Origin: a virus
Strand: one strand, 5' to 3'
IMG/VR virus record: IMGVR_UViG_3300021479_000010
Coordinates: 32,207 to 96,206 of that record
DNA length: 64,000 bases
The position numbers and the translations under genes are program-made. The notes beneath the pieces were generated by a model. It worked only from the letters and a program-made list of their open reading frames with translations, made no database searches and was not told where the DNA came from. Of this stretch, positions 213 through 14,000 are shown piece by piece (within the stretch, counting starts at the first letter, position 1; each line of letters opens with the position of its first letter).

Positions 213-232
213 TCAAACCTATTTGTTCATCC

Positions 233-631
233 CTAGTTAATAAGGTTCTGTCTCAAATGAGGACACTCACCGTAAAACTGCTTAGATTGATTGCAGTTAT
301 GGCACAATAAGCGGTATCGATCCTTTGGCCAACCATTCTTTTTCAGGAAGCGGTAAGTTCCGTGAGTTTTTCCGACCCGTTTCCGATGTTCGTGGCCATC
401 ATCAAAAATATGATCCAGACACAAAAACTCCTCTTCAGTAATATTGCACCCTCCCGGACATTGGCACTTGTGACCGTAAGCTATTAACATTTCTTCCCGC
501 AGAGCATCTCGATATCTTTTATGGCTGTCTATGCATTTCTGACATCTGGCTTTTCTCTTAGAAACCGTCACACCGCCGCAGGCACACAACCCCTTGGCTC
601 TGTTCTTCTGGGCCGTTGTTTGCTTCTTCAA
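233..631 (-). CDS. HNH-type endonuclease
   Basis: CQCPGGC...LCLDHIFDDG...LLCHNCN motif. Confidence 0.7.
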   Translation of the reverse strand: MKKQTTAQKNRAKGLCACGGVTVSKRKARCQKCIDSHKRYRDALREEMLIAYGHKCQCPGGCNITEEEFLCLDHIFDDGHEHRKRVGKTHGTYRFLKKNGWPKDRYRLLCHNCNQSKQFYGECPHLRQNLIN

Positions 632-674
632 ACGTATTCATTCTTTCTCCTCCAAACTTTACAAATTGCCTGAG

Positions 675-920
675 TTAAACTAGTTCTCCCAAAACGCGCC
701 GCGCATACCGTCTGCGAGAATCATCGCTATTCATGTCTGCCATCTGCCGCAAAAGTTTATCGCGGCTCTCTGGAGTAGCTTTTTCAACTAGCTCGCAATC
801 CTCAAGATGCGCCATTCCTTCTGGCCAGCCGCACCAACTTAAGTATCGGCCTTCAACGAAGGCTGTGACCCATCTTTCGCCGCTCGGTCTATGGAAAACA
901 ACGTCTCCTGTCTGAATCAT
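675..920 (-). CDS. Hypothetical protein
   Basis: 81-aa ORF bounded by junction sites on both sides; ends ELV* inside the repeat arm. Confidence 0.7.
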   Translation of the reverse strand: MIQTGDVVFHRPSGERWVTAFVEGRYLSWCGWPEGMAHLEDCELVEKATPESRDKLLRQMADMNSDDSRRRYARRVLGELV

Positions 921-946
921 AAACTTTATTAACTCCGCTGATTAAA

Positions 947-1309
947 CTAGATTTGCTCACTAACAGTTTCTGCTTTAGCGAGCATTTTCGCTTTACCATC
1001 CAATAAACAAACACGAACCCAATCATCGTCCAATTTGCCGTCACTGACGGCCATGCGGATCGGTTGCAGGGGTTGTCCGAATGTGGACAATTCCAGATAA
1101 ATGTCCGCGCCGCTGGCAATGGCCTGCCGGGCATTTTCATTCAAAGTCCAGCGGGAAATTACCCGCCGTTCTGGTCCTTCCGATACTAGCGAGCGAAGCG
1201 GTAAATACTCTGGTTGATCTGCGGCATAGACAACTTCTTCCGATTCCATGCCATCGACTACGGGACCATTCTTGATTGTTAGATAATTCCACATTCGTAT
1301 TACCCTCAT
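947..1309 (-). CDS. Hypothetical phage protein
   Basis: 120-aa ORF (ADQPEYLPL...ISRWTL); TAG stop lies inside the repeat arm. Confidence 0.7.
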   Translation of the reverse strand: MRVIRMWNYLTIKNGPVVDGMESEEVVYAADQPEYLPLRSLVSEGPERRVISRWTLNENARQAIASGADIYLELSTFGQPLQPIRMAVSDGKLDDDWVRVCLLDGKAKMLAKAETVSEQI

Positions 1310-1313
1310 TAAA

Positions 1314-1475
1314 TCATCTATTGTCTTTCTTGGTTAAACTAGTATCGTGCCATTTGTCCTGACATGGATCATACAGTGTCGGGCCGCCGTATTCGTGGCA
1401 GATATCATCCGCCACAAGCTTGCGAAGTTCTGGACGGTTGCTGTCGCAAGTCGGACATTTGTCTGGAATAGTCAT
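1314..1475 (-). CDS. Small Cys-containing hypothetical protein (53 aa)
   Basis: Manual translation MTIPDKCPTCDSNRPELRKLVADDICHEYGGPTLYDPCQDKWHDTSLTKKDNR; flanked by two junction sites. Confidence 0.55.
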   Translation of the reverse strand: MTIPDKCPTCDSNRPELRKLVADDICHEYGGPTLYDPCQDKWHDTSLTKKDNR

Positions 1476-1495
1476 TAAATCATCAATTGTCCTTC

Positions 1496-1774
1496 TTAGT
1501 TAACCAAGCTTTTCTTCTCATCTGGCGCGGCCAATTTAAGCACGTTTACAACCCCACCGATTGCTGGAACAATAGTTTGTAATTCCACCTTTACTAAAAT
1601 ACATGCGGGGTTCTCGACACCCTTTGGTGATCCAGATACGGACAGCCCCTTAACGATAGAACCATCCTCAATTCGAGTTATTACACCCACAACAAAATCA
1701 GACTTAATATTTACAACGGAACCGATTTCAAGTATATTTCCTAATAAGTCTACTATTTTCATCGTTGATTCCAT
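1496..1774 (-). CDS. Hypothetical protein
   Basis: 92-aa ORF co-oriented with its neighbours; ends in a junction site. Confidence 0.65.
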   Translation of the reverse strand: MESTMKIVDLLGNILEIGSVVNIKSDFVVGVITRIEDGSIVKGLSVSGSPKGVENPACILVKVELQTIVPAIGGVVNVLKLAAPDEKKSLVN

Positions 1775-2274
1775 TGCCTTCCTTTTGCAGCCATGTCTTT
1801 CATATTATCTTGATGAGTTCCAAGAAATAAATGATCTATATTTACACATGCTCGATTATCGCATTTATGGAGAACATACCAACTTTCTGGCCATTTTCCA
1901 TTGTGCAAGAACCATGAAACTCGCGGAGCTGAGATTATTTTTCTATCTCGATGAAAACTACCATACCCACTGCTATTGATTGCGCCTGTCCATGTCCAGC
2001 AAGGACCGATCTCCGCACAATGAGATGGGATTGGTCCATTTTTATCTACCTTTTCCCAAAATGCCTGCTCAATAGATTTCTTAGGTTCTAGCCTTAAACA
2101 TCCGCAAGATTTGCTATTCTTCATCAAAGATTCGTGTGAAACTTCTTTTTCTACTCCGCAGTCGCAAATGCACCAATAGAACTTGCTTTTCCTTGGTGAA
2201 GGCCGCCTAGTTATTCGTATTACCAACCATCGACCGATTCTTCGTCCTGATAAATCTTTGAATATATTTGGCAT
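1759..2274 (-). CDS. HNH homing endonuclease
   Basis: N-terminal CICDCG...SCGC domain; CWTWTG..GYG; VLHKCDNRACVNIDHL. Confidence 0.9.
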   Translation of the reverse strand: MPNIFKDLSGRRIGRWLVIRITRRPSPRKSKFYWCICDCGVEKEVSHESLMKNSKSCGCLRLEPKKSIEQAFWEKVDKNGPIPSHCAEIGPCWTWTGAINSSGYGSFHRDRKIISAPRVSWFLHNGKWPESWYVLHKCDNRACVNIDHLFLGTHQDNMKDMAAKGRQWNQR

Positions 2275-2304
2275 ATGCGTATTTCATTGAGTTCTATAAT
2301 CTAA

Positions 2305-3108
2305 CTAGATTTTGCCCGACGGACTCGGAAAAGCTTGGCCATAATAATATGCGGCCATCGTCGCCTTTGTAGCCGTTATATTTCCTGACAAAGCCAACTG
2401 CGGCTTTGGAGTCGGCTTTACCGTAATTGCGGGGACTTGATAGATGTGTGCAAGCTTCGCCGCAACCCCGCCATTATTAACAAGCGACTTCGGATAAGCA
2501 TATTGTGCGCGGTAGCCATGTTCGTGCTCAATTACGCGGCCCCACAAATAGACTTCCCCGTAAACACGAAGATCATCGGTAGGAGCGTTCTCGCCATGCT
2601 CCGTGTCTGCTTGTGACTTATAGGCGTAGATACCGCATACGCAATGAACACCTTTACAAATAGCGCCCTGCCCCGCAGGATCAGCAATAGACGGTCCTTT
2701 CGGAATCTTGCATTCCGCGCATAGTTTCTCAAGCGGTTTCCATTCTGTACGATTGTTGGACAGCAATTTGTCTGCAAATACCGGGACGCTCCATCGTCGC
2801 CAGCCAATAATAGGACTGACTAGTGTTTCTTGCGGCTTCGGCAATTTGCGGGGCGTCGGTTCGGCGAGTCCCGTAGACCAGGGATACGCATTCGTGGTCA
2901 GACCCGTAATACTTTGGATGTTACATACATGAGTATTGGGCGTGGTATAGCTCGTCCCGCATAGTACACACATGTATGTAGTTGACGGCATGGCCATATT
3001 AGTCGCCTCCGGCGGGGACAGGTTCTTCGATTCGCTTCGGAGTTTCTGTAGGAATTTCTTCCACATCTGGAATGCTCCTTCCGGGCAGTGGTTCGTACAA
3101 CGGCTCAA
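2305..3108 (-). CDS. Hypothetical phage protein (true start probably downstream, near 2998)
   Basis: Conserved-looking core GWRRW...CVCGIYAY...VYGEVYLWGRVIEHEHGYRAQYAYP. Confidence 0.65.
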   Translation of the reverse strand: MSRCTNHCPEGAFQMWKKFLQKLRSESKNLSPPEATNMAMPSTTYMCVLCGTSYTTPNTHVCNIQSITGLTTNAYPWSTGLAEPTPRKLPKPQETLVSPIIGWRRWSVPVFADKLLSNNRTEWKPLEKLCAECKIPKGPSIADPAGQGAICKGVHCVCGIYAYKSQADTEHGENAPTDDLRVYGEVYLWGRVIEHEHGYRAQYAYPKSLVNNGGVAAKLAHIYQVPAITVKPTPKPQLALSGNITATKATMAAYYYGQAFPSPSGKI

Positions 3109-3318
3109 CTGTAAATAATCCTCAACGGGTCGCCAATTTGTGCCATAAGGTCTTTAGAATCTACGGGGTCCGTGGTTGCGAACCCCGCAATTCGGGAGAG
3201 ACTCCTTTCCATAGATTATACTACAAGTTCAAAATCTTCGCAATTCTTAAAACGAGCCTCGCAATTTGATAGAACATATTTATTGCCCAAGCCAGCGCGA
3301 CGGCCATCGCGTTTCTCC

Positions 3319-4932
3319 TTAATTTATATTAGCTCCGCTATTCGAAATGTAATTATTCATCGGCCATTTATCATTTCCAGCCTTAGTTCCATTGCTCAAA
3401 ATGATATTTCCCGCAAACGAAGAATTGCCTGTCCAACAGCCGGGCACGAGCGTGGAATAATTCGCTTCAACTGTTGTTGCACAGTTGTTAACTCCGCCGC
3501 CTGTACTCCAAACAGGATATGTCCCCGCAGAAACGATATTGTTCGTAAAATTGATGTCCGATGTTTGCGCAACACCGAGAGCGTTATTCGCCGGGGGTCC
3601 ACCGATCAGAAGGAACCCGTGTCCGGTTGATCCCGCTTGCGGAGCCCATTGCGACAAGAACAACGAATTGTGATCGAATGAGACATCGTGCATAACAACC
3701 GGCGTGGATACGGGGTCGTACAGAGACGAAATCTGCATTAGGAAATTACCGGGAGTATTTTCACCTGTAAACTGTAAATCCGCGAATACATTGTCATGAA
3801 TCGAATAACCGTAACAAGCAGCAGGCCACGCGCCGTTATCACTTTTCCCGCACGCAACTTGCATTGCGTTTGAAGTATGCGAGATTCGGTTAAATCGGAC
3901 AGTTACATCGGTAACCGCGCAGATCGGACAAGTACCAGGATTTTTGGCTGTAAGTAGTATTGCAAATCCGTTTTGAGTGTAGCCTGCCCACGCGCCGCGC
4001 ATTATGTTGTTCGCAACCAAACAGCGGACACAGTTCTTCATCTCCACTATATTCTTTACAATCCATGCACACTTTCCACCGGGACATTTGCTATTAACAG
4101 ATGCGGGGACAAATGATGGGTCGCCGGGGTTCCACGAATCTGGCTTATTGAAGGTATTGTTCGTAATCGTAACATCGGTCGGATTGAATGTCGCAGTTCC
4201 ACCACCTGCAAGGATGTTCTCGCCAGATGCCTCGATAAAGTTGTTGTCGATGAGAATGTTGTGATCCTGAACGATTGTACTTAGCCCGAAGTTAATACCT
4301 TGAGCATCCCCGCAAGTTCCTACAATTGCGAGACAATGAAACCCCGCAAGATAGCTATTGATAATACCTATGTTATAAGCATTACTTAGCTCAAAACCCC
4401 GCACAGTTTCATCTTGACCATTCCCATGAATATAGCTTCGGTCAAATATGAGATCGTGAGCGCCCGAGCCGGGCGTTACGAGATTGTAAACCACCCCCGA
4501 CCCCGTAGTTCTAAGAATCTCAAATCCTACAATGCGGACGAATGCTCCGCCATGAATCCCCGCACCCGAGGAGTTAATAACAATCTTTGGCAGGGAGTAT
4601 TGCAGGGGATTCAGCCGCGTACCCTCAACGGGCAATACGCCAGATGACCAAATTGTAATCCAATGCTGGGCGTCGCAGTTCAATGTCGTGGGAAGCTGTA
4701 GAGTTCCTGTCCAAACATTTGCGGGGTCCACTAGGAATGTATCGCCGCACACTGCACCATTCAGTGCTGCTTGCAGGTTATCGGTCGGTCCTACGATCTT
4801 AGGAGCATTTGGAGACGGTGTGTTGGCAACCGATGTCGCCATAGTTGTTCGAGGAAGTTCGGCGGGGCCATCGTATGTCGATTGTCCATATGCGGACAAA
4901 GCCGCGCAAATTAAGAATAAGGGAAGCTTCAT
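3319..4932 (-). CDS. Secreted right-handed beta-helix (pectin-lyase-like) protein
   Basis: Signal peptide MKLPLFLICAALSAYG; DNLQAALNGAVCGDT start; repeated ITNNTF/IDNNFI/VRFNRI beta-helix coils. Confidence 0.75.
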   Translation of the reverse strand: MKLPLFLICAALSAYGQSTYDGPAELPRTTMATSVANTPSPNAPKIVGPTDNLQAALNGAVCGDTFLVDPANVWTGTLQLPTTLNCDAQHWITIWSSGVLPVEGTRLNPLQYSLPKIVINSSGAGIHGGAFVRIVGFEILRTTGSGVVYNLVTPGSGAHDLIFDRSYIHGNGQDETVRGFELSNAYNIGIINSYLAGFHCLAIVGTCGDAQGINFGLSTIVQDHNILIDNNFIEASGENILAGGGTATFNPTDVTITNNTFNKPDSWNPGDPSFVPASVNSKCPGGKCAWIVKNIVEMKNCVRCLVANNIMRGAWAGYTQNGFAILLTAKNPGTCPICAVTDVTVRFNRISHTSNAMQVACGKSDNGAWPAACYGYSIHDNVFADLQFTGENTPGNFLMQISSLYDPVSTPVVMHDVSFDHNSLFLSQWAPQAGSTGHGFLLIGGPPANNALGVAQTSDINFTNNIVSAGTYPVWSTGGGVNNCATTVEANYSTLVPGCWTGNSSFAGNIILSNGTKAGNDKWPMNNYISNSGANIN

Positions 4933-5231
4933 TTCTTGTCCTCAATGTCGCCCAGATTTTTAGACGAAGTAGCGGCAACGTCGAGTTGAACTAAATTTGG
5001 CCTAGTAAGACTCAGCTCCATAGCTGTAGTTTCTGGTTTGATAGACGTGCAACCGATTAAAAAGCTAATGTTCGCATCTGGGCAAGTCATCTGTCCGTCT
5101 TTCGCCGAGCACTTGCCGAAGCTGTGAATTACCATGCGGGACATACAAGGTAACGGGATGTATTGAGTAGGTTTCTTTTCCGTCGCCCCGCAAATTGTTG
5201 AAAGCAAAAGAATTAAGCTGCAAGTTCGCAT
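4929..5231 (-). CDS. Small secreted Cys-rich hypothetical protein
   Basis: MRTCSLILLLSTICG signal-like N-terminus; stop overlaps the start of the beta-helix gene. Confidence 0.55.
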   Translation of the reverse strand: MRTCSLILLLSTICGATEKKPTQYIPLPCMSRMVIHSFGKCSAKDGQMTCPDANISFLIGCTSIKPETTAMELSLTRPNLVQLDVAATSSKNLGDIEDKK

Positions 5232-5524
5232 TTGTTCTCCATCGGTGCCCCGCACATTATACAATAACTCGGTCCATTGTCGCAAGAAAATACCCTTCGG
5301 CCAATCTGATCGCGGAGTAACCATACAATCCGCACACGCACGCAATAGCGGTTAGGGTCTATGCCCAACTTCAAGCTGATACGATGTAGATGCTGTTTCA
5401 CTGTGTTCTGGCAGATACCGAAGCGCTCGGCCAATTCTCTATTGCCGAGGCCCTCCATTAATGCAAGTATAACTTTATTTTCCTGTCGCGTAAAGTTCAT
5501 TGTCGCCTTCAGTATTCTAGCCAA
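5213..5524 (-). CDS. LuxR/GerE-family HTH regulator
   Basis: FTRQENKVILALMEGLGNRELAERFGICQNTVKQHLHRISLKLG; probable start at 5500. Confidence 0.85.
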   Translation of the reverse strand: MARILKATMNFTRQENKVILALMEGLGNRELAERFGICQNTVKQHLHRISLKLGIDPNRYCVRVRIVWLLRDQIGRRVFSCDNGPSYCIMCGAPMENKCELAA

Positions 5525-5736
5525 AGTTCCACAGATTCGTGTTTCTCAATGGCCTCCAATAATTCCAGAGCGCCTTCAATGTTGGCATCAGCCAATCCTT
5601 GTAAATATGGTACTTGGTTTCGCCCGAAAGTTTGCCGATGTTCAAGGCCATATCTGTCACGCAGTACGAACTTGAGAGCATCCGGCAGTGATTCAGCCGG
5701 GCGTTTGGCGGGCTCCCACATCAAATTTGCGCTCAT
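5509..5736 (-). CDS. Hypothetical protein
   Basis: 75-aa ORF with GGAGG RBS. Confidence 0.7.
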   Translation of the reverse strand: MSANLMWEPAKRPAESLPDALKFVLRDRYGLEHRQTFGRNQVPYLQGLADANIEGALELLEAIEKHESVELWLEY

Positions 5737-6382
5737 AGCTCCTCCATTTGTCCAGATACGGACAGCTCCCGCCCCGCAATATCGTATCTGCGTATCCGTA
5801 TAACCCTTCGGTCAAGTTCCTGCTTTACAGCTTCGGTATGCTGGTGATTCAGCCACGCAAATAAAAGTAACTCTTGTAATTCCATACCAGGGCGCAATTT
5901 GATGATTAGCATATGCGCGGCCCTCCAAGCCGCCCCGTATAATCTGGTTTAACTAATTGAATCTAACAAGTTTTGAACGCTCTCCAAGTCGTCGCGCCAG
6001 TCGGGTGCTTGTTCTTCTCAGAAACACCAAGGATCACAGTCTTCGGCATATTTTGCCCAACCCCGCATAGTTTTGACTGCATCGACAAGCTTTGTGATTT
6101 GTTCGTCTTTCGTCATTGTCGCCCCGCATCTTAGAAAACTGTTCGGTCAAGTATACCAAATGTCGCCCAAACTTCTGTGATTGTCAAGCTTAAATTAGTC
6201 CTCTCGCTTCGCTTTTCGTACAGCTTCTTCGGCAGCCTGCCATAGGGGACCGCTGTACTTCAATTCACAATAGTGATTAAGGAGATTCTCTAGTGCCCTG
6301 AGCAAGTCAGGAGCCGCATCTCGGATGTGATCCTCTTGTCGTTCGGCTTTGTATACCATTAAACGCCTCCAAACTTTATTGT

Positions 6383-6835
6383 CTAGATAACTCTATCAGG
6401 TTCTCCGAGTAGCGTTCTTTCCTCTAGCAGTTCGGCTAATCGTCGCTCAGAGAATTTAATATGTGATCGCAAATCTTCAATTTTCCAATCTAATTGTCGC
6501 AAGTGTCTCTGTTTATTAGGCTTAGCGTCCTTTCGTACCCACCATTGTTCGCTGATTCCACCGATAGGGACGTGAATTACATCGCAGTCGTCGTATCGGT
6601 CGCATTCGTCTCGGTCAGTTTTGCGGAAATCATCCAAGCAACCAAGGAATTCCGCTTCGGCTAGTTTTTCCAAAGATACGCCATCCATCGAAGGATCACG
6701 CCAATAGGTATCAGTTCCGAATAAGCCATATCCTCTGTCTTGGATGATGGCTAATCCGTGCCGACACCACGCGCCGGATGAGTATCGGAAAATCATGTTC
6801 GGTCTAATGTCGCTGAGGTTCATGTCGCCCCGCAA
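6383..6835 (-). CDS. Hypothetical protein
   Basis: 150-aa ORF with C-terminal coiled coil; ends in a junction site. Confidence 0.65.
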   Translation of the reverse strand: MRGDMNLSDIRPNMIFRYSSGAWCRHGLAIIQDRGYGLFGTDTYWRDPSMDGVSLEKLAEAEFLGCLDDFRKTDRDECDRYDDCDVIHVPIGGISEQWWVRKDAKPNKQRHLRQLDWKIEDLRSHIKFSERRLAELLEERTLLGEPDRVI

Positions 6836-7028
6836 TTGTAAATATGGTTCGGTCAGTTATGAGGTTTGCGGGGCGCGGTCAGCCCATACGCATGTGTACA
6901 AAGCTGGCAAGTGTGCCATTGCTCCTCCGGCTTGCCTTGCTTGTCAGTGTATCGGCTTGCGCCACAATCGCAAATCTCAATATTGCGCGAGTCGCCTATG
7001 CTTGTGTGGTGCGGCTTATGTTTGTGCA

Positions 7029-7520
7029 TTAGGCTATCTCGCTTTCTTTCATTAGTTTAGCATAATCGAAAGACTTTACGGCCTCGCGCCATTTGTTGCT
7101 AAGTTCCTTACGGGCAATCCAACCGATTACTTCGGCCATTGCAGCGGTCTGCCGCGCAACCAAGAAAAGACTTGCCTTGGGCATCTCAGGAAGGCTAGCA
7201 CCGAATGTCGCCTGGGACATTAGAATGAGTTTGGCAGCTTGGCCGACTGAGAATGATGCGCGGCGTTCGCCTCTGTGTTGCCTTTCGTTGGCCGTCTCCT
7301 GCCCTAATAGCTTGGCTAAATCATCGTGCCAGCTAACATCCTGCGCGAAGTCGCGCAAGCACACGCCGTCATCGTTCGGCCCCGCAGCTTTATATGCGCG
7401 GTCAATCGCTTCGCGGAAGTCACACCAGAGAGTATCAATTTGCTGTTTCGTTTTGGTCATTGTCGCCTCGTTTTTAACGTCCTGTCCGGACGAATTGTAA
7501 ACCTGTTTGATCATGCCCAT
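7029..7520 (-). CDS. Hypothetical protein
   Basis: 163-aa ORF in the leftward early cluster. Confidence 0.6.
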   Translation of the reverse strand: MGMIKQVYNSSGQDVKNEATMTKTKQQIDTLWCDFREAIDRAYKAAGPNDDGVCLRDFAQDVSWHDDLAKLLGQETANERQHRGERRASFSVGQAAKLILMSQATFGASLPEMPKASLFLVARQTAAMAEVIGWIARKELSNKWREAVKSFDYAKLMKESEIA

Positions 7521-7834
7521 TAATTAAGTTTCGGTTCGCTGTATGGTTCGATGTTAATGATATTGTACCACGCAAAGGTGATTAGGTCGCCCCACTCCAT
7601 AGGCAGAAACAGCGGAGTATTGCGAAGGAATCCCGTATATTTGCCCTTACTGGCCGCGGTAACTTGGACCCACATACGCTCCCCGCCTTCGAATCCTTCC
7701 GCCTCAAATACAAGCTTGACCGATTGACCGGGCAAAATGTGCTTGCGGTCGTAATCGTTTGGCAGTTCGAAAGTAACAGCAGGAGCTATGGCGTAATCTA
7801 CGATTGTAATGTCGCTAGTCATTCTTGCCTCCAA
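7520..7834 (-). CDS. DUF2314-like protein
   Basis: GGERMWVQV...YTGFLRNTP motif. Confidence 0.6.
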   Translation of the reverse strand: MEARMTSDITIVDYAIAPAVTFELPNDYDRKHILPGQSVKLVFEAEGFEGGERMWVQVTAASKGKYTGFLRNTPLFLPMEWGDLITFAWYNIINIEPYSEPKLN

Positions 7835-7999
7835 TGTCGCTAGAACTGTTCGGTTTTGTCCGCTTCTGGATAACTGCGGAGCCGCGCATTGTCCACAATC
7901 CGAATCGTAGTCTCTAGCAATCTCTCTGGCTCCTCGTCATATTGCGCGGCTAGTCTATCACGTAATGCTTTCGTCGGCCATCCGTCCGCGTCGATTAGG

Positions 8000-8203
8000 T
8001 TAACCATTATCGGCCTCGATTCTAACCCGCGCAAGCTTCGCACGGAACGATGCATTCGGGCAGTTCTCGCGGTAGCATTTTAGCTGTGCTTTCATGTCGC
8101 GCCAGTTATCTTCTGAGACTTCATGCTCCCAGCCATAGCCGTAATTAGACCACATCTGCCATTCGTCGCGTGTCTTTCGAGTGTACGTCATGTTTTCCTC
8201 CAA
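8000..8203 (-). CDS. Hypothetical phage protein
   Basis: NYGYGWEHE..E...QLKCYRENCP; GGAGG RBS. Confidence 0.7.
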   Translation of the reverse strand: MEENMTYTRKTRDEWQMWSNYGYGWEHEVSEDNWRDMKAQLKCYRENCPNASFRAKLARVRIEADNG

Positions 8204-8248
8204 TGCAGATAGTATTGCATAACTGCGGGGCGCGTGTCAAGGCTTTTA

Positions 8249-8506
8249 TTAGCCTTGATTTTCAAGCACTTGCAAGGCTTCCCGCTCAATGTCGCTATCA
8301 AACTTAGCTAATTCCTCATCATCTGATAGCTGTCCAGATGCGGACGCCGCAGGAGCCGCGCAGTTCAAATGGAACAGCGGCGTTCCTTGCCAGTCCATAC
8401 TTACTAGGTCGCCATCGTTCATAGGTGCCCCGCAGTTCGGGCAAATGTCGCGGGAATACATGCGGTTTGCCCAGTTCAAATTACGGCGTGTTTCCCAAGT
8501 TTTCAT
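8249..8506 (-). CDS. Hypothetical zinc-ribbon protein
   Basis: CPNC...HLNC motif; RBS upstream. Confidence 0.6.
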   Translation of the reverse strand: MKTWETRRNLNWANRMYSRDICPNCGAPMNDGDLVSMDWQGTPLFHLNCAAPAASASGQLSDDEELAKFDSDIEREALQVLENQG

Positions 8507-8704
8507 TACAGTCTCCCTTCGTGGAACTGTGCAATAATCTCTTTCATGCGTGCTTCGGTGAGCCGCGCATCCGTCAAGAGAATCACGTATTCGACTAGAG
8601 TAAAGTACATGTCAGTATCCTCGCATATTCAGATTTGATTGTCAAGCATTATTTATGGTTGCAATCGAGTGGCCGCGCAATTATCATAGAGATGCGGGGA
8701 AAGC

Positions 8705-8734
8705 TTGACAATGGCGGTCATTCGGAGGCATAAT
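8705..8734 (+). promoter_or_regulatory. Sigma70-type promoter
   Basis: TTGACA-18-CATAAT, immediately followed by a 16-bp palindrome at 8738-8753. Confidence 0.55.
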
Positions 8735-8802
8735 CCGTGTTCAGATGCGGACAAAATCTGTCGATCCGCGCAAGTTGTTGAAAACAGGGCAAAAGAAAAT
8801 GC

Positions 8803-8831
8803 TTGACAAATTTCCCCGCATTCAGTAAGAT
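8803..8831 (+). promoter_or_regulatory. Sigma70-type early promoter
   Basis: TTGACA-17-TAAGAT upstream of GGAGG and ATG 8854. Confidence 0.7.
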
Positions 8832-8853
8832 ACTGACATTGGAGGAAAGCACA

Positions 8854-9024
8854 ATGAAGCTACTTGATATGCAAGGCAAGGTTTACTTCGCGGATCAAGC
8901 CCTTGACGTTGCGCGGCAGTTACAGGAATCTGATCCTGACTGGAAATATGAGGCCGAAATCAAAGGCGACTATGGCCGCGTCAATGTCTACGATGAGAAT
9001 GGCCAGTTGCTAGGTGCATTCTAG
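8854..9024 (+). CDS. Hypothetical protein
   Basis: GGAGG RBS; first gene of the rightward early arm; stop in a junction arm. Confidence 0.7.
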   Translation: MKLLDMQGKVYFADQALDVARQLQESDPDWKYEAEIKGDYGRVNVYDENGQLLGAF

Positions 9025-9062
9025 TTTGTTCAATCGAGTTAAACAAGAATCTTGGAGGAAAT

Positions 9063-9230
9063 ATGTGGAAACTTGGATACGAAGACGCGGTACAGTTCAA
9101 GCCCAGCATGTACGAAGACGGGCCAGTGAGCATTATCGGGATAGCTGCCTACGATTATCGCCAAGGATACAAGGCAGGCAATCGAGACCGCATCTGGGCA
9201 AACGGCAATCGTCCGCCACAAGCAAACTAG
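9063..9230 (+). CDS. Hypothetical protein (55 aa)
   Basis: Manual translation MWKLGYEDAVQFKPSMYEDGPVSIIGIAAYDYRQGYKAGNRDRIWANGNRPPQAN; GGAGG RBS; TAG stop in a junction arm. Confidence 0.65.
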   Translation: MWKLGYEDAVQFKPSMYEDGPVSIIGIAAYDYRQGYKAGNRDRIWANGNRPPQAN

Positions 9231-9254
9231 TTTGATGAGCGAGATTAAACCAGA

Positions 9255-9542
9255 ATGACAAACCAAGACTATCTCGATTCGCTTGATTCCATGTTCGGCG
9301 GTCCCGACGAGACCGTGATTGAATGCCGGACTACAAAGGTTGTAACCGTCCGCAAAGAGCATCTTTGCATGTGCCCGGCCCACACTCCGCTGCATACGAT
9401 CAAAGCCGGAGAACAGGCAGGCATGGAACGGGCTATCGCTGATGGGGCTTGGGGCACCTGTTACGTCTGCTTACCTTGTCTGGAATCGTGGGCAAGACAT
9501 TGTGACAAGCAAGAGGACTACTGCAATGCGAAACTAGTTTAA
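9255..9542 (+). CDS. Hypothetical Cys/His-rich protein
   Basis: HLCMC...CYVCLPC; ends KLV* in a junction arm. Confidence 0.7.
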   Translation: MTNQDYLDSLDSMFGGPDETVIECRTTKVVTVRKEHLCMCPAHTPLHTIKAGEQAGMERAIADGAWGTCYVCLPCLESWARHCDKQEDYCNAKLV

Positions 9543-9550
9543 GGAGCCTT

Positions 9551-9745
9551 ATGACATTAGCGATATGCGACTATTGCGGGGTCGTGATTCTTAGTGCTCA
9601 GTTGAAGGAATACATAGATGGGCGTGTGTATCACGCAGGTTGCGCCAAGAATCCTAATGGCACAACAGTCACTCGCGCAGGCGAATGCACATGCAACAAC
9701 GACAGCGCAAAATGGCATTTTCCCGGATGCCCGAAACTAGTTTAA
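9551..9745 (+). CDS. Hypothetical zinc-finger protein
   Basis: CDYC...HAGC...CTC...H..GC; ends KLV*. Confidence 0.65.
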   Translation: MTLAICDYCGVVILSAQLKEYIDGRVYHAGCAKNPNGTTVTRAGECTCNNDSAKWHFPGCPKLV

Positions 9746-9778
9746 TCGAGCAAGTTAATAAAGAATTGGAGGGGTTAT

Positions 9779-10174
9779 ATGAATACATCTGACTATGACA
9801 AAGCTCTTAGAGACGTGGTTCTCATAGGATGCATCTGCCATGAAGGAGGAGAACACGAGCGCGGTCAATGCCCGGTTTGTGAGACTGTGGATACGATCAG
9901 AAAGAATCGGAAATCCGCGCAGATGACATCCAAAGACATTAAACAAGCTGCCAAGTCTCTTAAATCCAATTGGGACGATTTGCGGCCTAATCCATTAGCC
10001 GCGCAATTAGATGATTTCGTCCGAGAAAGCTTAACGCTGGATTTGCTCAAAACGGTTTACGAACTCTCCGAGCTAGTTTACCACTTGTGTCCCGATTCCG
10101 GGAGTATGAAAGACCGTATTATCAGGATGCGAGATCGTTTATACGACACGTATGGCAAAGACAAACTAGTTTAA
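9779..10174 (+). CDS. Hypothetical protein
   Basis: GGAGG RBS; CICH...CPVC; ends KLV*. Confidence 0.7.
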   Translation: MNTSDYDKALRDVVLIGCICHEGGEHERGQCPVCETVDTIRKNRKSAQMTSKDIKQAAKSLKSNWDDLRPNPLAAQLDDFVRESLTLDLLKTVYELSELVYHLCPDSGSMKDRIIRMRDRLYDTYGKDKLV

Positions 10175-10221
10175 TGTACTCACTTAGAATATGATTTAAT
10201 CAAAATTGGAGGATAAGGAAC

Positions 10222-10860
10222 ATGACCGAAGTAACCAAAGACGCTATTACGATTCTATCGCGTTGGTCTGGTAAAGTATTGTACTCCTGCGCGAAAGCAA
10301 CGATCAAAGAAGCGGTATTACAGGCAATTAAAGACGGCGCGGACCTGTCCGGCGCGAACCTGTCCGGCGCGAACCTGTCCGGCGCGAACCTGTCCGGCGC
10401 GGACCTGTCCGGCGCGGACCTGTCCGGCGCGAACCTGTCCGGCGCGGACCTGTACGGCGCGAACCTGTCCGGCGCGGACCTGTCCGGCGCGAACCTGTCC
10501 GGCGCGGACCTGTCCGGCGCGAAAGAAATTCCAGTCTTGGCAGCCGCGCAATCCTTGATTGTGCCCGAATCTGGCCCGTTCTTTGGATGGAAGAAATGCA
10601 AGAATGGGGTTATTGTAAAGCTTGCCATTGGAACAAATGCGAGGCGCAGTAACGCGACTGGGCGAAAATGCCGCGCAGAATATGTCAAGGTCTTAGAAGT
10701 AATTGGCGCGGAAGTAGGCATTAGCGAACATGACGGTAAAACTGAATACCGCAAAGGCGCGATTGTTCGATGCGACAAATGGAATGAGGACAGATGGACA
10801 GAATGCGGGGGCGGGATTCATTTCTTCTTGACTCGCATCGAAGCCGAGAATTACAGCTAG
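10222..10860 (+). CDS. Pentapeptide-repeat protein with C-terminal DUF5758-like domain
   Basis: ([10 protein letters not shown])n repeats followed by GWKK...KCRAEY...CGGGIHFF. Confidence 0.9.
10336..10515 (+). repeat. 12 tandem 15-nt coding repeats GGCGCGRACCTGTMC
   Basis: Near-identical units encoding the pentapeptide repeats. Confidence 0.95.
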
Positions 10861-10906
10861 TTGATAACAAAGGGGTTATTTTGTTCGCATCTGGACAAGA
10901 TTTTGC

Positions 10907-10935
10907 TTGACAGGTGCCGCGCATTTTGCTATTGT
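10907..10935 (+). promoter_or_regulatory. Sigma70-type promoter
   Basis: TTGACA-17-TATTGT upstream of GGAGG and ATG 10958; 16-bp palindrome at 10882-10897. Confidence 0.6.
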
Positions 10936-10957
10936 ATCTGTATTGGAGGATACACAA

Positions 10958-11314
10958 ATGGACTGGAATACAGCGAACACGGAAGCAACGAAGCTCTGGT
11001 ACAAATGGGTTAGCTCGCGCCCTGCAGTAGGCATTGACGGATACTTGCAACAAAGCCGCGATATGGCCGACTACAAGCTGTATGATTTGGACAGAATCCA
11101 CTCATCCATGCTGCAAGAGTACCGATACATTCGCCAAGGAACAAGCCGCGCAACTCCCGGATTAATCTCAGAAGTAAAGGGAGAATTGATTCTCCTAGGC
11201 AAGATTCGCAAGGCATTGGCAAAAGACACAGACGCGGGTTCGCGCCCACGTTGCAACATTGGCTCAATTGAATTGTGCCAATGCACTTTCCTGCCGCAAA
11301 ACCCCCTTATTTAG
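10958..11314 (+). CDS. Hypothetical protein
   Basis: GGAGG RBS before MDWNTAN. Confidence 0.65.
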   Translation: MDWNTANTEATKLWYKWVSSRPAVGIDGYLQQSRDMADYKLYDLDRIHSSMLQEYRYIRQGTSRATPGLISEVKGELILLGKIRKALAKDTDAGSRPRCNIGSIELCQCTFLPQNPLI

Positions 11315-11321
11315 GGGGTTT
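11299..11321. terminator. Hairpin terminator
   Basis: AAACCCCCT-TATTT-AGGGGGTTT. Confidence 0.55.
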
Positions 11322-11411
11322 CGTTACAAATTATGGTTTCAACAAATGGTGAAATATGCCGTTTGATTGAAACCTGTTTAAGTAGTAGGATTAAACCAGA
11401 ATGAGGACAGC

Positions 11412-13345
11412 ATGAGTGCAGACAATGGAATCAAGACGCATGCGCGGCCTCGCAATTTGGGAGAGAGCACATACAGTCAGCAATACAGAAATGGATTGAC
11501 AGCGTATATGGCAAATGATTGGACAATCGAAACCATGCGAATTGTCAATGAGTTAACGCCGGATATTCACGGCAGGGCATTTGATCCTGACTGGTTTCTA
11601 TTGCGCCAACGTTTCGAGCAAATGGAAGAGAAATACAGCGAGATGCTGGAATTACTGGAAACCATTGAGAACGATACCAAGCTTGTTCCTAACTGGCTGT
11701 GGGTTCGGATACAATCTGCTGTCAAAAGAGCCAAGGAGCCCGGCAAATGACATTTGACGAATGGTGGGATAATGACGGCAAATACTACGATCCTGACTGG
11801 GATGATATTCCGTGGTACGACAAGCGCAAATCATTGGCTGAATACGCTTGGCATCGCGCACTCGAAACGCGCGGCAGTCCGCCAGTGGACATCGTAACGA
11901 ATGCCGGATTTGGACCTGATCACGCGTTCAAACGCCAGCCCCGCAAATTAGTAGACTTAGACAAGGATTTAGGCATATGAAGAAGCAAATCAGAAAGCTA
12001 TCGCCTTGGGCAAAGATGCTGCAAGCCGCGAAGCGCAAAACCAGCTTGCGATTGACTGCCAGTGAAGTGCAGACCTTTGTGTATCTCCGCAAGCCAAAAG
12101 ACTAAGGATTTAGAATGCCTGCTGGCATAAACCGCGATTGCTCAGTGTGCATGAATACGGGATTGCGCAATGGTGCGCCTTGCGACGTATGTCGAGACGC
12201 GCCCCGCAAGCCAGAGGAATGGTGCAAGTGGCGAGACGCGGACAAAGGCATGATCAAACCAGAGCACAGCACAGGATACAATCGACAATGGGAGAATGAG
12301 ACATTGGCCGAATGGATCGCACGATGCGGCCTCGCAACTGTGGAAGCGATTCTCAAGGCAGAACGCAAATGAGCGATACATACGACCTCGCATGTCATGA
12401 CTGTAAAGCTAGCCTATGGATAGGTCAGAGTGGCAGCAGTCCGTGGTGTTTCTATACAGGCGAACCAGAGACAATGCAGGCGCTTGGGCTGTTCTTCTGG
12501 GCGCATCGTGGACATCGGCTAGAGTTTAATGAATGCCAATTACTCGAATACGTGGCAGATTTAGGCTCAGCATAGACGTGTTGAGCGAAGGAATGACCAT
12601 TGCCAGCCCCGCCAACCCCATTAGGTTTGATGACGGCAAGCTTGGCTACTTCGCTGATCGTCATTGGCACGTACAGAGCGAACCCGGCAATTGGATAGTT
12701 GCGGACCTCGCCGCGCATAATCTCATGGAATACATGCTATCGAAGGGAATGTTTGAATGAATCTATCAGGCTATTTAGACCACGAAGAGGATTGCACTTG
12801 TCTTGATTACCATGACAGGTTTTTGTCCGCAAGTGGACAAGCCGATGGACCGCAATTCGCCCCGCAATGTGTGAAGGACATCTGGAATGAGGAAATGGTA
12901 TTCAAGATGACAAGGGGAACATGGGCGGACCTAATCGACGGCAAACCAATTGGCCGTTGCTACGTCATGGCCGATGGTGCGATACGAGTAGAGCGCAACA
13001 AGCTTGTCCGCTGTACGTCATGCGGATTCCAAGGCACAAACGATCAATTCCTTGCCGGACATCTGGCCTCAGTCTGCCCGAACTGCAAGAGCGATTACAC
13101 GGTCCAAAACGCCCCGCAATTCCCAAAGGACAATCAAGACTAAGATGAGCTATTATTCATTCCAATGGTGGATTCGATGGTTCGTGCCGTTGCCAATCCT
13201 TATCCGAATATCAAAGGCGACGTTTGGCCGTCATCATGTCTGGTATCAAGACGATCATATAAGCCTTGAAACACATCCGTTTGATCGTGCCGAAGTGACC
13301 GATGCAGACCGCAAAGCAATGCAAGACTTGGACCGATACATCTAG
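11412..13345 (+). other. Run of about eight small, translationally coupled hypothetical genes
   Basis: ORFs 11412-11750, 11747-11980, 12115-12372, 12369-12575, about 12578-12760, 12757-13143 and 13145-13345, several with ATGA overlaps and CxxC motifs. Confidence 0.6.
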
Positions 13346-13799
13346 TAATTAAATAATTAACAATTGACTGCAAAGCATTGACCAATTGAGTAACAGAACT
13401 AACCACGCGAATTTTCCGCTGGCATTTTCGCCCATCCAATCCCAACCGGGCGAACTAGTTTAATCTGTTTACTCAACCAAGAATCGAAGCAAGTCCTTTG
13501 TTTTCAATGCACATCAGCGTCTCTGCTATGATCTGCCGATTTCCTAGGTGCTAGAGGAGGATAGACGTAAAGGCACTACTTTCATAGACTTAGGCCCCGT
13601 GACTTACCCCACGTGGGTGGGCCACCTTGCGCGAGGCTTGGGTGGCTCCAAAGCATCCTTTTCTCAGATATATGCCCCGGTATTGTTTTCCTATAAAAAG
13701 GGTCCCTATTTGGTCACAGACCCCCGGTATATTTTCCCCTATGCGTGATTTATCTTGACAAAGTACCTTGTATATGAGATTATGTGTTTGGGAGGATTT

Positions 13800-14000
13800 A
13801 TGAAGACATTTGCTATCGTAGTTTTGTTCTCGATCTCAGCGTTCGGGAAGAACCAACCGGGGTTTTCCACCAAGCCATCTGTCGTTATTGTTCGACCATC
13901 GATCCGCAACTCGGTCCCGGTCTCTGGATATGTCCGCGTTCCGTCCGCGCCGAATACTGGCAGCTACAAAGGTACCTCTAATCCAAAACATCCCCGGTAG
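13800..14000 (+). CDS. Small secreted hypothetical protein
   Basis: GGAGG RBS; MKTFAIVVLFSISAFG signal peptide; TTGACA at 13755. Confidence 0.55.
   Translation: MKTFAIVVLFSISAFGKNQPGFSTKPSVVIVRPSIRNSVPVSGYVRVPSAPNTGSYKGTSNPKHPR

Follow-up and report, generated by a model that had tools for sequence, protein, structure and literature searches.

Conserved repeats at gene junctions in phage early regions are already known, and so are components of integrons in phages. Among the sites of simple tyrosine recombinases, loxP (13-8-13), FRT and dif (11-6-11) have inverted arms of about 13 bp around an asymmetric centre of 6-8 bp, the identity of which decides pairing, while the sfx sites of the R64 shufflon combine one conserved and one loose arm around a 7-bp centre. 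In T4-like phages, the PeSLs (promoter-early stem-loops) are short conserved intergenic motifs on either side of ORFan genes, in early regions that are hyperplastic. Relatives differ by indels and replacements whose ends lie at these motifs, and excised mini-circles have been demonstrated (PMC2839356, PMC4122927). The ESAS elements of Cluster K mycobacteriophages are imperfect inverted repeats with a stronger left repeat and a single orientation, found only in the non-structural half of the genome just upstream of gene starts and kept across subclusters beside different genes; the function of ESAS and SAS is unknown (PMC3203893). Stoperators, in Cluster A mycobacteriophages, are 13-bp sequences that recur over 20 times in the short gaps between genes and point in the direction of transcription (PMC9283540), and attC clusters of integrons have been reported in phages (PMC9892861). 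Here we describe an array of 33-bp sites that resembles each of these systems in part. It lies in the early region of a soil phage (here G000) and was studied in a stretch of 64,000 nucleotides, the window, which covers bases 32207-96206 of a 96,206-bp IMG/VR record rated complete. The sites have a rigid geometry and stand at gene ends, their centres are conserved over their arms, and breakpoints between related phages fall at the edges of the centres. The strongest reading of these sites is that they are cassette junctions where genes are exchanged.

A preliminary description of the window had listed about 16 imperfect inverted repeats with a 13-7-13 layout and had proposed an integron-like system that captures or shuffles cassettes. 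We seeded a site matrix with the examples given there, masked the spacer and iterated the matrix over the whole record, using a threshold of at least 12 bits and first-order Markov shuffles as the null. This yielded 21 sites against 0.5 expected in the shuffles. Sixteen full sites lie between window positions 215 and 13484, in agreement with the earlier count of about 16, together with one copy consisting of arm 1 only; five further sites lie upstream of the window (genome 20725-26595). The sites are restricted to the early/accessory 25 kb. The matrix scan found none in genome 0-20.7 kb or 45.7-96.2 kb, glycan and structural genes included, which bears out the earlier statement that those regions are free of sites; they are absent both from the inside of genes and from the late region. 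When the arms were scanned separately, arm 2 followed exactly 7 bp after arm 1 in 33 of the 54 arm-1 matches, and every other spacing from 0 to 20 gave at most one match. Arm 1 has the consensus AAACTAGTTTAAT with an invariant C4, its information content is well above that of arm 2, and its first ten bases form a palindrome on their own. Arm 2 is looser, roughly nTYAAnnnAKnWT, with A29 invariant and T33 frequent.

The term inverted repeat held for the consensus but not for the single sites, where Watson-Crick pairing of the arms amounted to 6.2 of 13 positions, against 6.4 when the arms were taken from different sites. Since the arms do not covary, no hairpin is under selection, whether in RNA or as a cruciform. 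A stem-loop in the RNA between cistrons, serving processing, stability or translational coupling, would suit the position of the sites on the transcribed strand, after one stop and before the following start. Against it stand the missing covariation, a common stem of only 5-6 bp made of AU pairs, the independent swapping of the arms between relatives and the lack of an Rfam match, and we consider it extremely improbable. A search of 1-16 kb for Rfam families and tRNAs returned none. As a general candidate, an RNA or DNA hairpin was rejected on the absent covariation together with the independent exchange of arms.

The sites are tightly fitted to the genes around them, as the preliminary description had claimed. 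The stop codon of the preceding gene is, in most sites, the TAG at site position 5 or the TAA at position 10, so that the better arm supplies upstream stops in two frames. The following start codon lies at site positions 25-60; in some cases an ordinary ribosome-binding site precedes it, in others it comes immediately after arm 2. Matrix and gene map agreed that the sites stand at gene boundaries and that they point the same way as the genes, to the left and to the right of the divergence at 8.5-8.85 kb, where sigma-70-like promoters (window 8.6-8.85 kb) start two divergent early operons; the leftward operon continues through the DNA polymerase gene into DNA upstream of the window. The resulting maps show mostly single, co-oriented genes bounded by sites. 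What the preliminary description had said about the look and place of the sites was borne out throughout, with the qualification on the inverted repeat given above.

This placement bears on a further possibility, namely that the sites are phage-specific (middle-class) promoters, with arm 1 as the box for an activator or sigma factor and the final six bases of arm 2 as a -10-like hexamer. The invariant A29 and the frequent T33 would be the second and last positions of that hexamer, and the sites are oriented with transcription at roughly one per gene. However, at roughly one site in three the following gene begins very early, with a start codon that overlaps arm 2 or comes 1-4 nt after it. This start precedes any plausible transcript start, which speaks against a promoter for the gene in question. 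None of the sites was picked up in the sigma-70 scan, and conserved centres would go unexplained. We regard this explanation as very unlikely. Sigma-70 promoters and intrinsic terminators as such were rejected as the identity of the sites, which do not coincide with promoter- or terminator-like matches.

A motif scan of IMG/VR returned one record with many copies, G001 (93,865 bp). It is syntenic with G000 and circularly permuted, with about 70% nucleotide identity in core genes and 78% protein identity in the polymerase. In the region equivalent to the array, almost no gene has a BLASTP match, and yet the matrix scan, which the preliminary description had suggested extending to relatives, found 17 sites in G001 (19 including weaker ones), oriented with the genes. 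Three more relatives came from a metagenome scan based on the polymerase: L084 and L085, whose shared blocks match G001 at 95-99% identity, and L088, the relative nearest to G000. Scans with centre-specific patterns gave nothing beyond G001 or chance matches. Among bacterial genomes, a polymerase-based scan found no prophage and a strict motif scan gave 18 scattered single matches but no array. The distant polymerase relatives G006 and G007, both incomplete records, have neither the motif nor the integrase.

Comparison of these phages revealed that the centres behave as ordered addresses. Within one genome all centres differ, by at least 2 bases. Between G000 and G001, eight centres agree fully and two more agree in all but one base; when only matrix-found sites were counted, six centres were shared, against 0.02 in shuffles (maximum 2 in 5000). 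The shared centres occur in the same order: TTCCCTG, TAGCTGG, the polymerase, TCAGRCA, CAGCGGA, CAAGAAA, TAAGAAG, GGGCATS, GAGCGAG, CGAGCAA and GTACTCA. At matched sites the centres are 97% identical, whereas arm 1 reaches 74% (65% at unmatched sites) and arm 2 56% (48% at unmatched sites). Outside the arms, the next 40 bp agree no better than random sequence. Exact matches around a common centre often extend over just 7-13 bp, though some islands are 20-40 bp long. For TCAGGCA, the islands across lineages measure just 7-20 bp, with 7-9 bp in four lineages. Upstream of the polymerase, five phages carry the same series of centres with different genes in between. One slot of this series is absent from two of the five, and L085 has an empty slot (5802-5893) in which the CAGCGGA and TCAGGCA sites stand 59 bp apart with no gene between them. 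Spacers that are specific to a position and conserved between phages fit a crossover region.

Two further observations concern the orientation of shared centres in G001. Arm 1 with the centre CGAGCAA is present twice in inverted orientation, at 437-469 (-) and 3196-3228 (+), and the GAGCGAG site at 1064-1096 (-) differs from its counterpart in the window at 9224-9256 (+) both in strand and in the side of the promoters on which it lies. This doubling and flipping suggests an inversion across the divergent promoters.

The preliminary description had proposed looking for gene gain and loss breakpoints between relatives within the 7-bp spacers. Such breakpoints, including those of gene replacement, do fall at the sites, and five of them coincide exactly with the edge of the spacer: in comparisons of G001, L084 and L085, long blocks of 95-99% identity stop at the last centre base, on the boundary between the centre and arm 2 (centres CTACCTA, TGAACGG, CAAGAAA, TAGTTAG and CTGCATA). 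In one case, a single arm 2 with its downstream gene is joined at the same nucleotide to three different units of arm 1 plus centre. In another, a 1-kb indel, L084 lacks a segment (G001:91836-92846) that has an arm 2 at its start and arm 1 plus centre at its end. The junction left in L084 retains the centre of the left site, an outcome that crossing-over within the shared arm 1 would not give. One more breakpoint lies inside arm 1 of a degenerate site. Through exchanges at the centre edges, the order of the addresses would be kept as the arms and genes around them are replaced.

Gene-boundary mosaic joints are a general rule in phages (the Hendrix model), and the breakpoints may coincide with the sites simply because selection keeps the gene-boundary products of illegitimate recombination, the sites themselves being purely regulatory or structural. 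About half of the close-relative breakpoints lie at gene starts without a site, as this explanation would predict. It nevertheless leaves unexplained the identical, ordered 7-bp centres between unrelated arms and genes, the three different upstream contexts that meet a single arm 2 at an identical nucleotide, and the indel with both ends at the same relative position of two sites. We think it unlikely, though not to the degree of the promoter and stem-loop explanations.

A less easily dismissed alternative is that the sites are regulatory elements read by a factor of the phage or the host, for instance of the operator/stoperator type or linked to translation like ESAS, and that these short junctions double as linkers for the general recombination of the phage. 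Transcription-wise orientation, intergenic place, restriction to the non-structural region and a stronger left arm all match ESAS and stoperators (PMC3203893, PMC9283540), and shuffling mediated by PeSLs is documented (PMC2839356, PMC4122927). The means would be at hand: G000 encodes RecA, an Erf-family annealing protein, SSB and a 3'-5' exonuclease, in addition to a primase-helicase, an RNA ligase, a family A DNA polymerase, HNH and endonuclease VII-like nucleases and the tyrosine recombinase discussed below, the family of which is also found without such sites. The identity islands of 20-40 bp point the same way, but many islands cover no more than 7-13 bp between flanks that are random on both sides, and an exchange driven by homology would need more than that. 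Moreover, the centres are more conserved than the supposedly functional arms, the junction of the 1-kb indel is unlike the product of arm-1 crossing-over, and the early promoters, unlike those of operator/stoperator systems, have no site. No repressor-like protein common to G000 and G001 was found, although failure to recognise a repressor counts for little, and the sole helix-turn-helix (HTH) protein of the region is absent from G001. On balance, we hold such a dual role to be possible but doubtful.

The HTH protein just mentioned is of the LuxR/GerE type and has 95 amino acids (window 5213-5500, -). Its gene overlaps two longer frames and is skipped by simple gene calling. As the factor binding the arms it is an unlikely candidate because of its absence from G001.

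What favours protein-mediated, site-specific exchange of cassettes at the ordered 7-bp centres is the combination of these properties. The rigid spacing and the dyad symmetry at the consensus level point to a protein acting on DNA, and centres that are better kept than arms, together with identity islands down to 7 bp, argue against both plain homologous recombination and a simple operator. We assign this reading a probability of roughly 0.45 and hold it tentatively. Arm 1 of each 33-bp unit would belong to the preceding gene and arm 2 would travel with the following gene. The centre, unique to each position, would be the part that must match or is never replaced, and accessory genes would be inserted, deleted and replaced between related phages through exchanges at the centre edges. 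In the most likely mechanism, two protein subunits would bind the arms and exchange strands across the 7-bp centre. Identical centres would then pair equivalent slots of co-infecting relatives, and different centres would stop the roughly 20 direct repeats of one genome from deleting each other.

The preliminary description noted no recombinase in the window and advised a search elsewhere in the phage. Such a gene is indeed encoded within the array, 6.1-6.9 kb upstream of window base 1 (genome 25259-26120; L010:5259-6120), and specifies a tyrosine recombinase with core-binding and catalytic domains only, lacking an arm-binding domain. The version in G001 is intact (293 aa; L080:17583-18464, -). 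Its predicted fold (pLDDT 91.5) has the Tn1549 integrase as best structural match (TM 0.74), followed by lambda Int, IntI, XerH and Cre. The recombinase is one of only about ten proteins of the region that G000 and G001 have in common, and some forty relatives with 36-54% identity are present in metagenomes, some of them on contigs of about 94 kb (one of 93.7 kb). It is not an IntI-type integrase, and its scores fall far under the cut-offs of the integron and Xer models: 21 bits against 265 and 435 for the NCBIfam integron-integrase models, and 54 bits against 220 for the best model, which is archaeal XerA-like.

The sites have the layout of simple tyrosine-recombinase core sites, and the array encodes a suitable enzyme. 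Two inverted arms around a fixed centre of 6-8 bp are common to the sites described here and to lox, FRT, dif and sfx, with the symmetry present at the consensus level only and with binding and cleavage putative, supported indirectly by the natural breakpoints at the edge between centre and arm 2 and by the presence of the two-domain recombinase. The two-domain enzyme encoded within the array, in its 293-aa form, is the candidate for acting on them. We know of no natural system with about 20 sites of different centres in an ordered array for exchange between genomes. A natural form of 'addressed' exchange, in which one recombinase acts on about 20 sites with the same arms but different 7-bp overlaps and joins only the namesake sites of co-infecting relatives, is conceivable, but less likely than protein-mediated exchange as such.

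Several observations weigh against exchange by a dedicated enzyme. About half of all breakpoints between close relatives are at start codons without a site, which indicates that gene boundaries as such are favoured, and the tight packing of the genes partly forces the apparent precision of the breakpoints. Some events joined sites of different centres, and identity of the centre is thus not an absolute requirement. The relatives compared are metagenome assemblies from one environment in which the linkage along a contig could be chimeric, and only two deep lineages were compared. The branch points among the relatives are nevertheless real sequence; the 20 bp common at a site are, by our own estimate, fewer than usual assembler word sizes. 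The recombinase of G000 is split by a single extra base (+1 frameshift) near a GGGCCC run, with all catalytic residues present across the two frames, which may be a recent inactivation or an assembly error at 12x depth. Finally, the link between this enzyme and the sites is indirect. Recombinase relatives of 29-44% identity lie in other large phages of IMG/VR, and around these loci neither the matrix nor self-BLAST nor Gibbs sampling of gene junctions revealed a comparable motif in the 10 kb searched, whereas the positive control recovered the motif in G000. The presence of relatives in site-free phages means that the family is not tied to such arrays, and this weakens its link to the sites. 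The originally proposed capture and shuffling of cassettes is supported in part, by the breakpoints at the junctions, the absence of sites from gene interiors and the late region, the conserved spacers and the recombinase in the array; the putative connection between recombinase and sites is not supported by the frameshifted gene or by the relatives in phages that lack the motif. The assembled contigs of the only run that contains the stretch, probably its source, showed no joints of circular or rearranged forms, which says little for or against them, and no RNA data set with the stretch was listed.

Set against the known systems, the sites combine familiar features in a different way. Indels and replacements between relatives end at the motif, as they do at PeSLs. 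However, a PeSL consists of a sigma-70 promoter and a terminator hairpin and recombines by homology, whereas our sites are neither promoter nor hairpin and have the rigid 13-7-13 geometry with a position-specific centre. ESAS elements have 17-bp arms and a variable spacer of 4-13 bp, and they are tied to a 13-bp SAS at the ribosome-binding site (PMC3203893). The sites of G000 instead keep a constant spacing of 7, overlap the preceding stop codon with arm 1 and have conserved addresses as their centres; no second conserved 13-mer of the SAS kind was found at the starts near the sites, which follow at a variable distance. Stoperators are single asymmetric 13-mers to which the immunity repressor binds, and they occur at the early promoter too, where they are operators (PMC9283540), while the present site is bipartite and absent from promoters, with no repressor found. 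The likeness to integrons comprises mostly single, co-oriented and promoterless genes between recombination-type sites, a crossover at a fixed point of the cassette edge and a tyrosine recombinase nearby (PMC9892861). On the other hand, there is no IntI-type integrase here and no attI/Pc platform was seen, attC sites are folds of 57-141 bp whereas the sites have a fixed 33 bp and arms without the covariation of a hairpin, and the array extends on both sides of divergent promoters. The label 'integron-like' is therefore apt as an analogy only, since neither integrase nor sites are those of an integron; that the sites do not match attC had been recognised from the start. Full-text literature searches returned no rigid two-part site whose centres are ordered, specific to their position and longer-lived than arms and genes.

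The positions of the sites and promoters in the window are collected in the table.

Table. Junction sites and early promoters of G000 (window coordinates)
Feature	Position	Strand	Basis and remarks
Site directly upstream of the DNA polymerase gene	215-248	-	Centre 7 or 8 bp depending on register (AGGGATG / TAGGGAT); 15.8-19.9 bits
Site, centre TCAGGCA	654-686	-	Matrix; centre also in four other lineages, flanks unrelated
Site, centre CAGCGGA	921-953	-	Matrix; centre also in G001 and L085, flanks unrelated
Site, centre CAAGAAA	1313-1345	-	Matrix; centre also in G001, L084 and L085
Site, centre TAAGAAG	1479-1511	-	Matrix; centre also in G001 and L084
Site, centre TATAGAA, upstream of HNH endonuclease gene (HNH_3 domain)	2279-2311	-	Matrix
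Site, centre TCAATTA	5941-5973	-	Matrix
Site, centre CTTGACA	6169-6201	-	Matrix
Site, centre TTATCTA	6371-6403	-	Matrix
Site, centre GGGCATG	7499-7531	-	Matrix; equivalent in G001 is GGGCATC
Divergent sigma-70-like early promoters of both site-bearing operons	8600-8860		Promoter-like matches at 8705+, 8803+, 8711- and 8240-
Site, centre CAATCGA	9018-9050	+	Matrix
Site, centre GAGCGAG	9224-9256	+	Matrix
Arm-1-only copy, directly followed by ribosome-binding site and start codon	9531-9543	+	Arm scan
Site, centre CGAGCAA	9734-9766	+	40 bp identical to G001, unrelated genes on both sides
Site, centre GTACTCA	10163-10195	+	Arm 1 and centre identical in G001; arm 2 and flanks differ
Site, centre TAGTAGG	11370-11402	+	Matrix; 56 nt past gene end and intrinsic terminator (11303-11318)
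Last site of the array, centre CTGTTTA	13452-13484	+	Matrix

The site upstream of the polymerase has an equivalent in L088 with the centre TAGGATG. The CAAGAAA and TAAGAAG sites flank an open reading frame (ORF) of 53 codons, and the latter is not a private duplication because G001 and L084 have the same centre, which also weakens a reading of the ORF as the trace of a private single-cassette insertion. The GGGCATG site scores slightly higher on the + strand because it is nearly palindromic. There was no matrix match between 7531 and 9018, the stretch that holds the divergent promoters. Past the last site, window 13485-13800 comprises about 300 bp without a convincing ORF, followed by a sigma-70-like promoter at 13755, and has no Rfam match.

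Several genes in and around the array deserve mention. Two HNH_3 endonucleases and an endonuclease VII-like gene lie within it (window 1759-2274, -; L010:2129-2527, -; L010:4578-5270, +) and are probably homing-type insertions within slots. The gene at window 10222-10860 (+) encodes a pentapeptide-repeat and DUF5758 protein, with repeat DNA that matches gp3 of EBPR siphovirus 1 at 91.5% identity; the gene draws extra contigs from the source run (58x versus 12x). Window 3319-4932 (-) encodes an early-operon protein of 537 amino acids with a signal-peptide-like start and no Pfam or PHROG family, which has a homologue with 43% identity in G001.

Other repeated sequences were also noted. The heptamer CC[C/G]CGCA has 200 copies in G000 (30 expected) and 166 in G001 (28 expected), on both strands and both within genes and in promoter spacers. 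A 16-bp palindrome, TGTCCR-N4-YGGACA, is present 13 times in G000 and 21 times in G001, with about 0 expected. L157, a phage with a related integrase, has a dispersed word of its own, TCCGGAAACTGAAC. Upstream of several leftward early genes lies a second repeated element consisting of TTGACCGAAC, 11-27 nt and TGCGGGGCGAC(A)ATG, found at window ~5225-5290, 5760-5830, 6113-6160 and 6836-6870 (-) and without a sigma-70 promoter match.

It has long been asked how phages acquire and shed small accessory genes (ORFans, morons and anti-defence genes) precisely at gene boundaries. Of the two standard answers, one invokes illegitimate joints that arise at random and are filtered by selection, the other short conserved linkers. 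In the phages studied here the joints can be read to the nucleotide, and ordered 7-bp addresses that outlast both genes and arms are hard to obtain from either answer. If the addressed exchange considered above is true, accessory genes would be swapped slot by slot, as a natural counterpart of engineered heterospecific lox/FRT exchange. The pattern makes a mechanism of this kind directly testable with one small recombinase and 33-bp substrates. If confirmed, the array would represent a new class of gene-capture platform beside integrons, and it would offer ready-made, mutually incompatible recombination sites for genome engineering.

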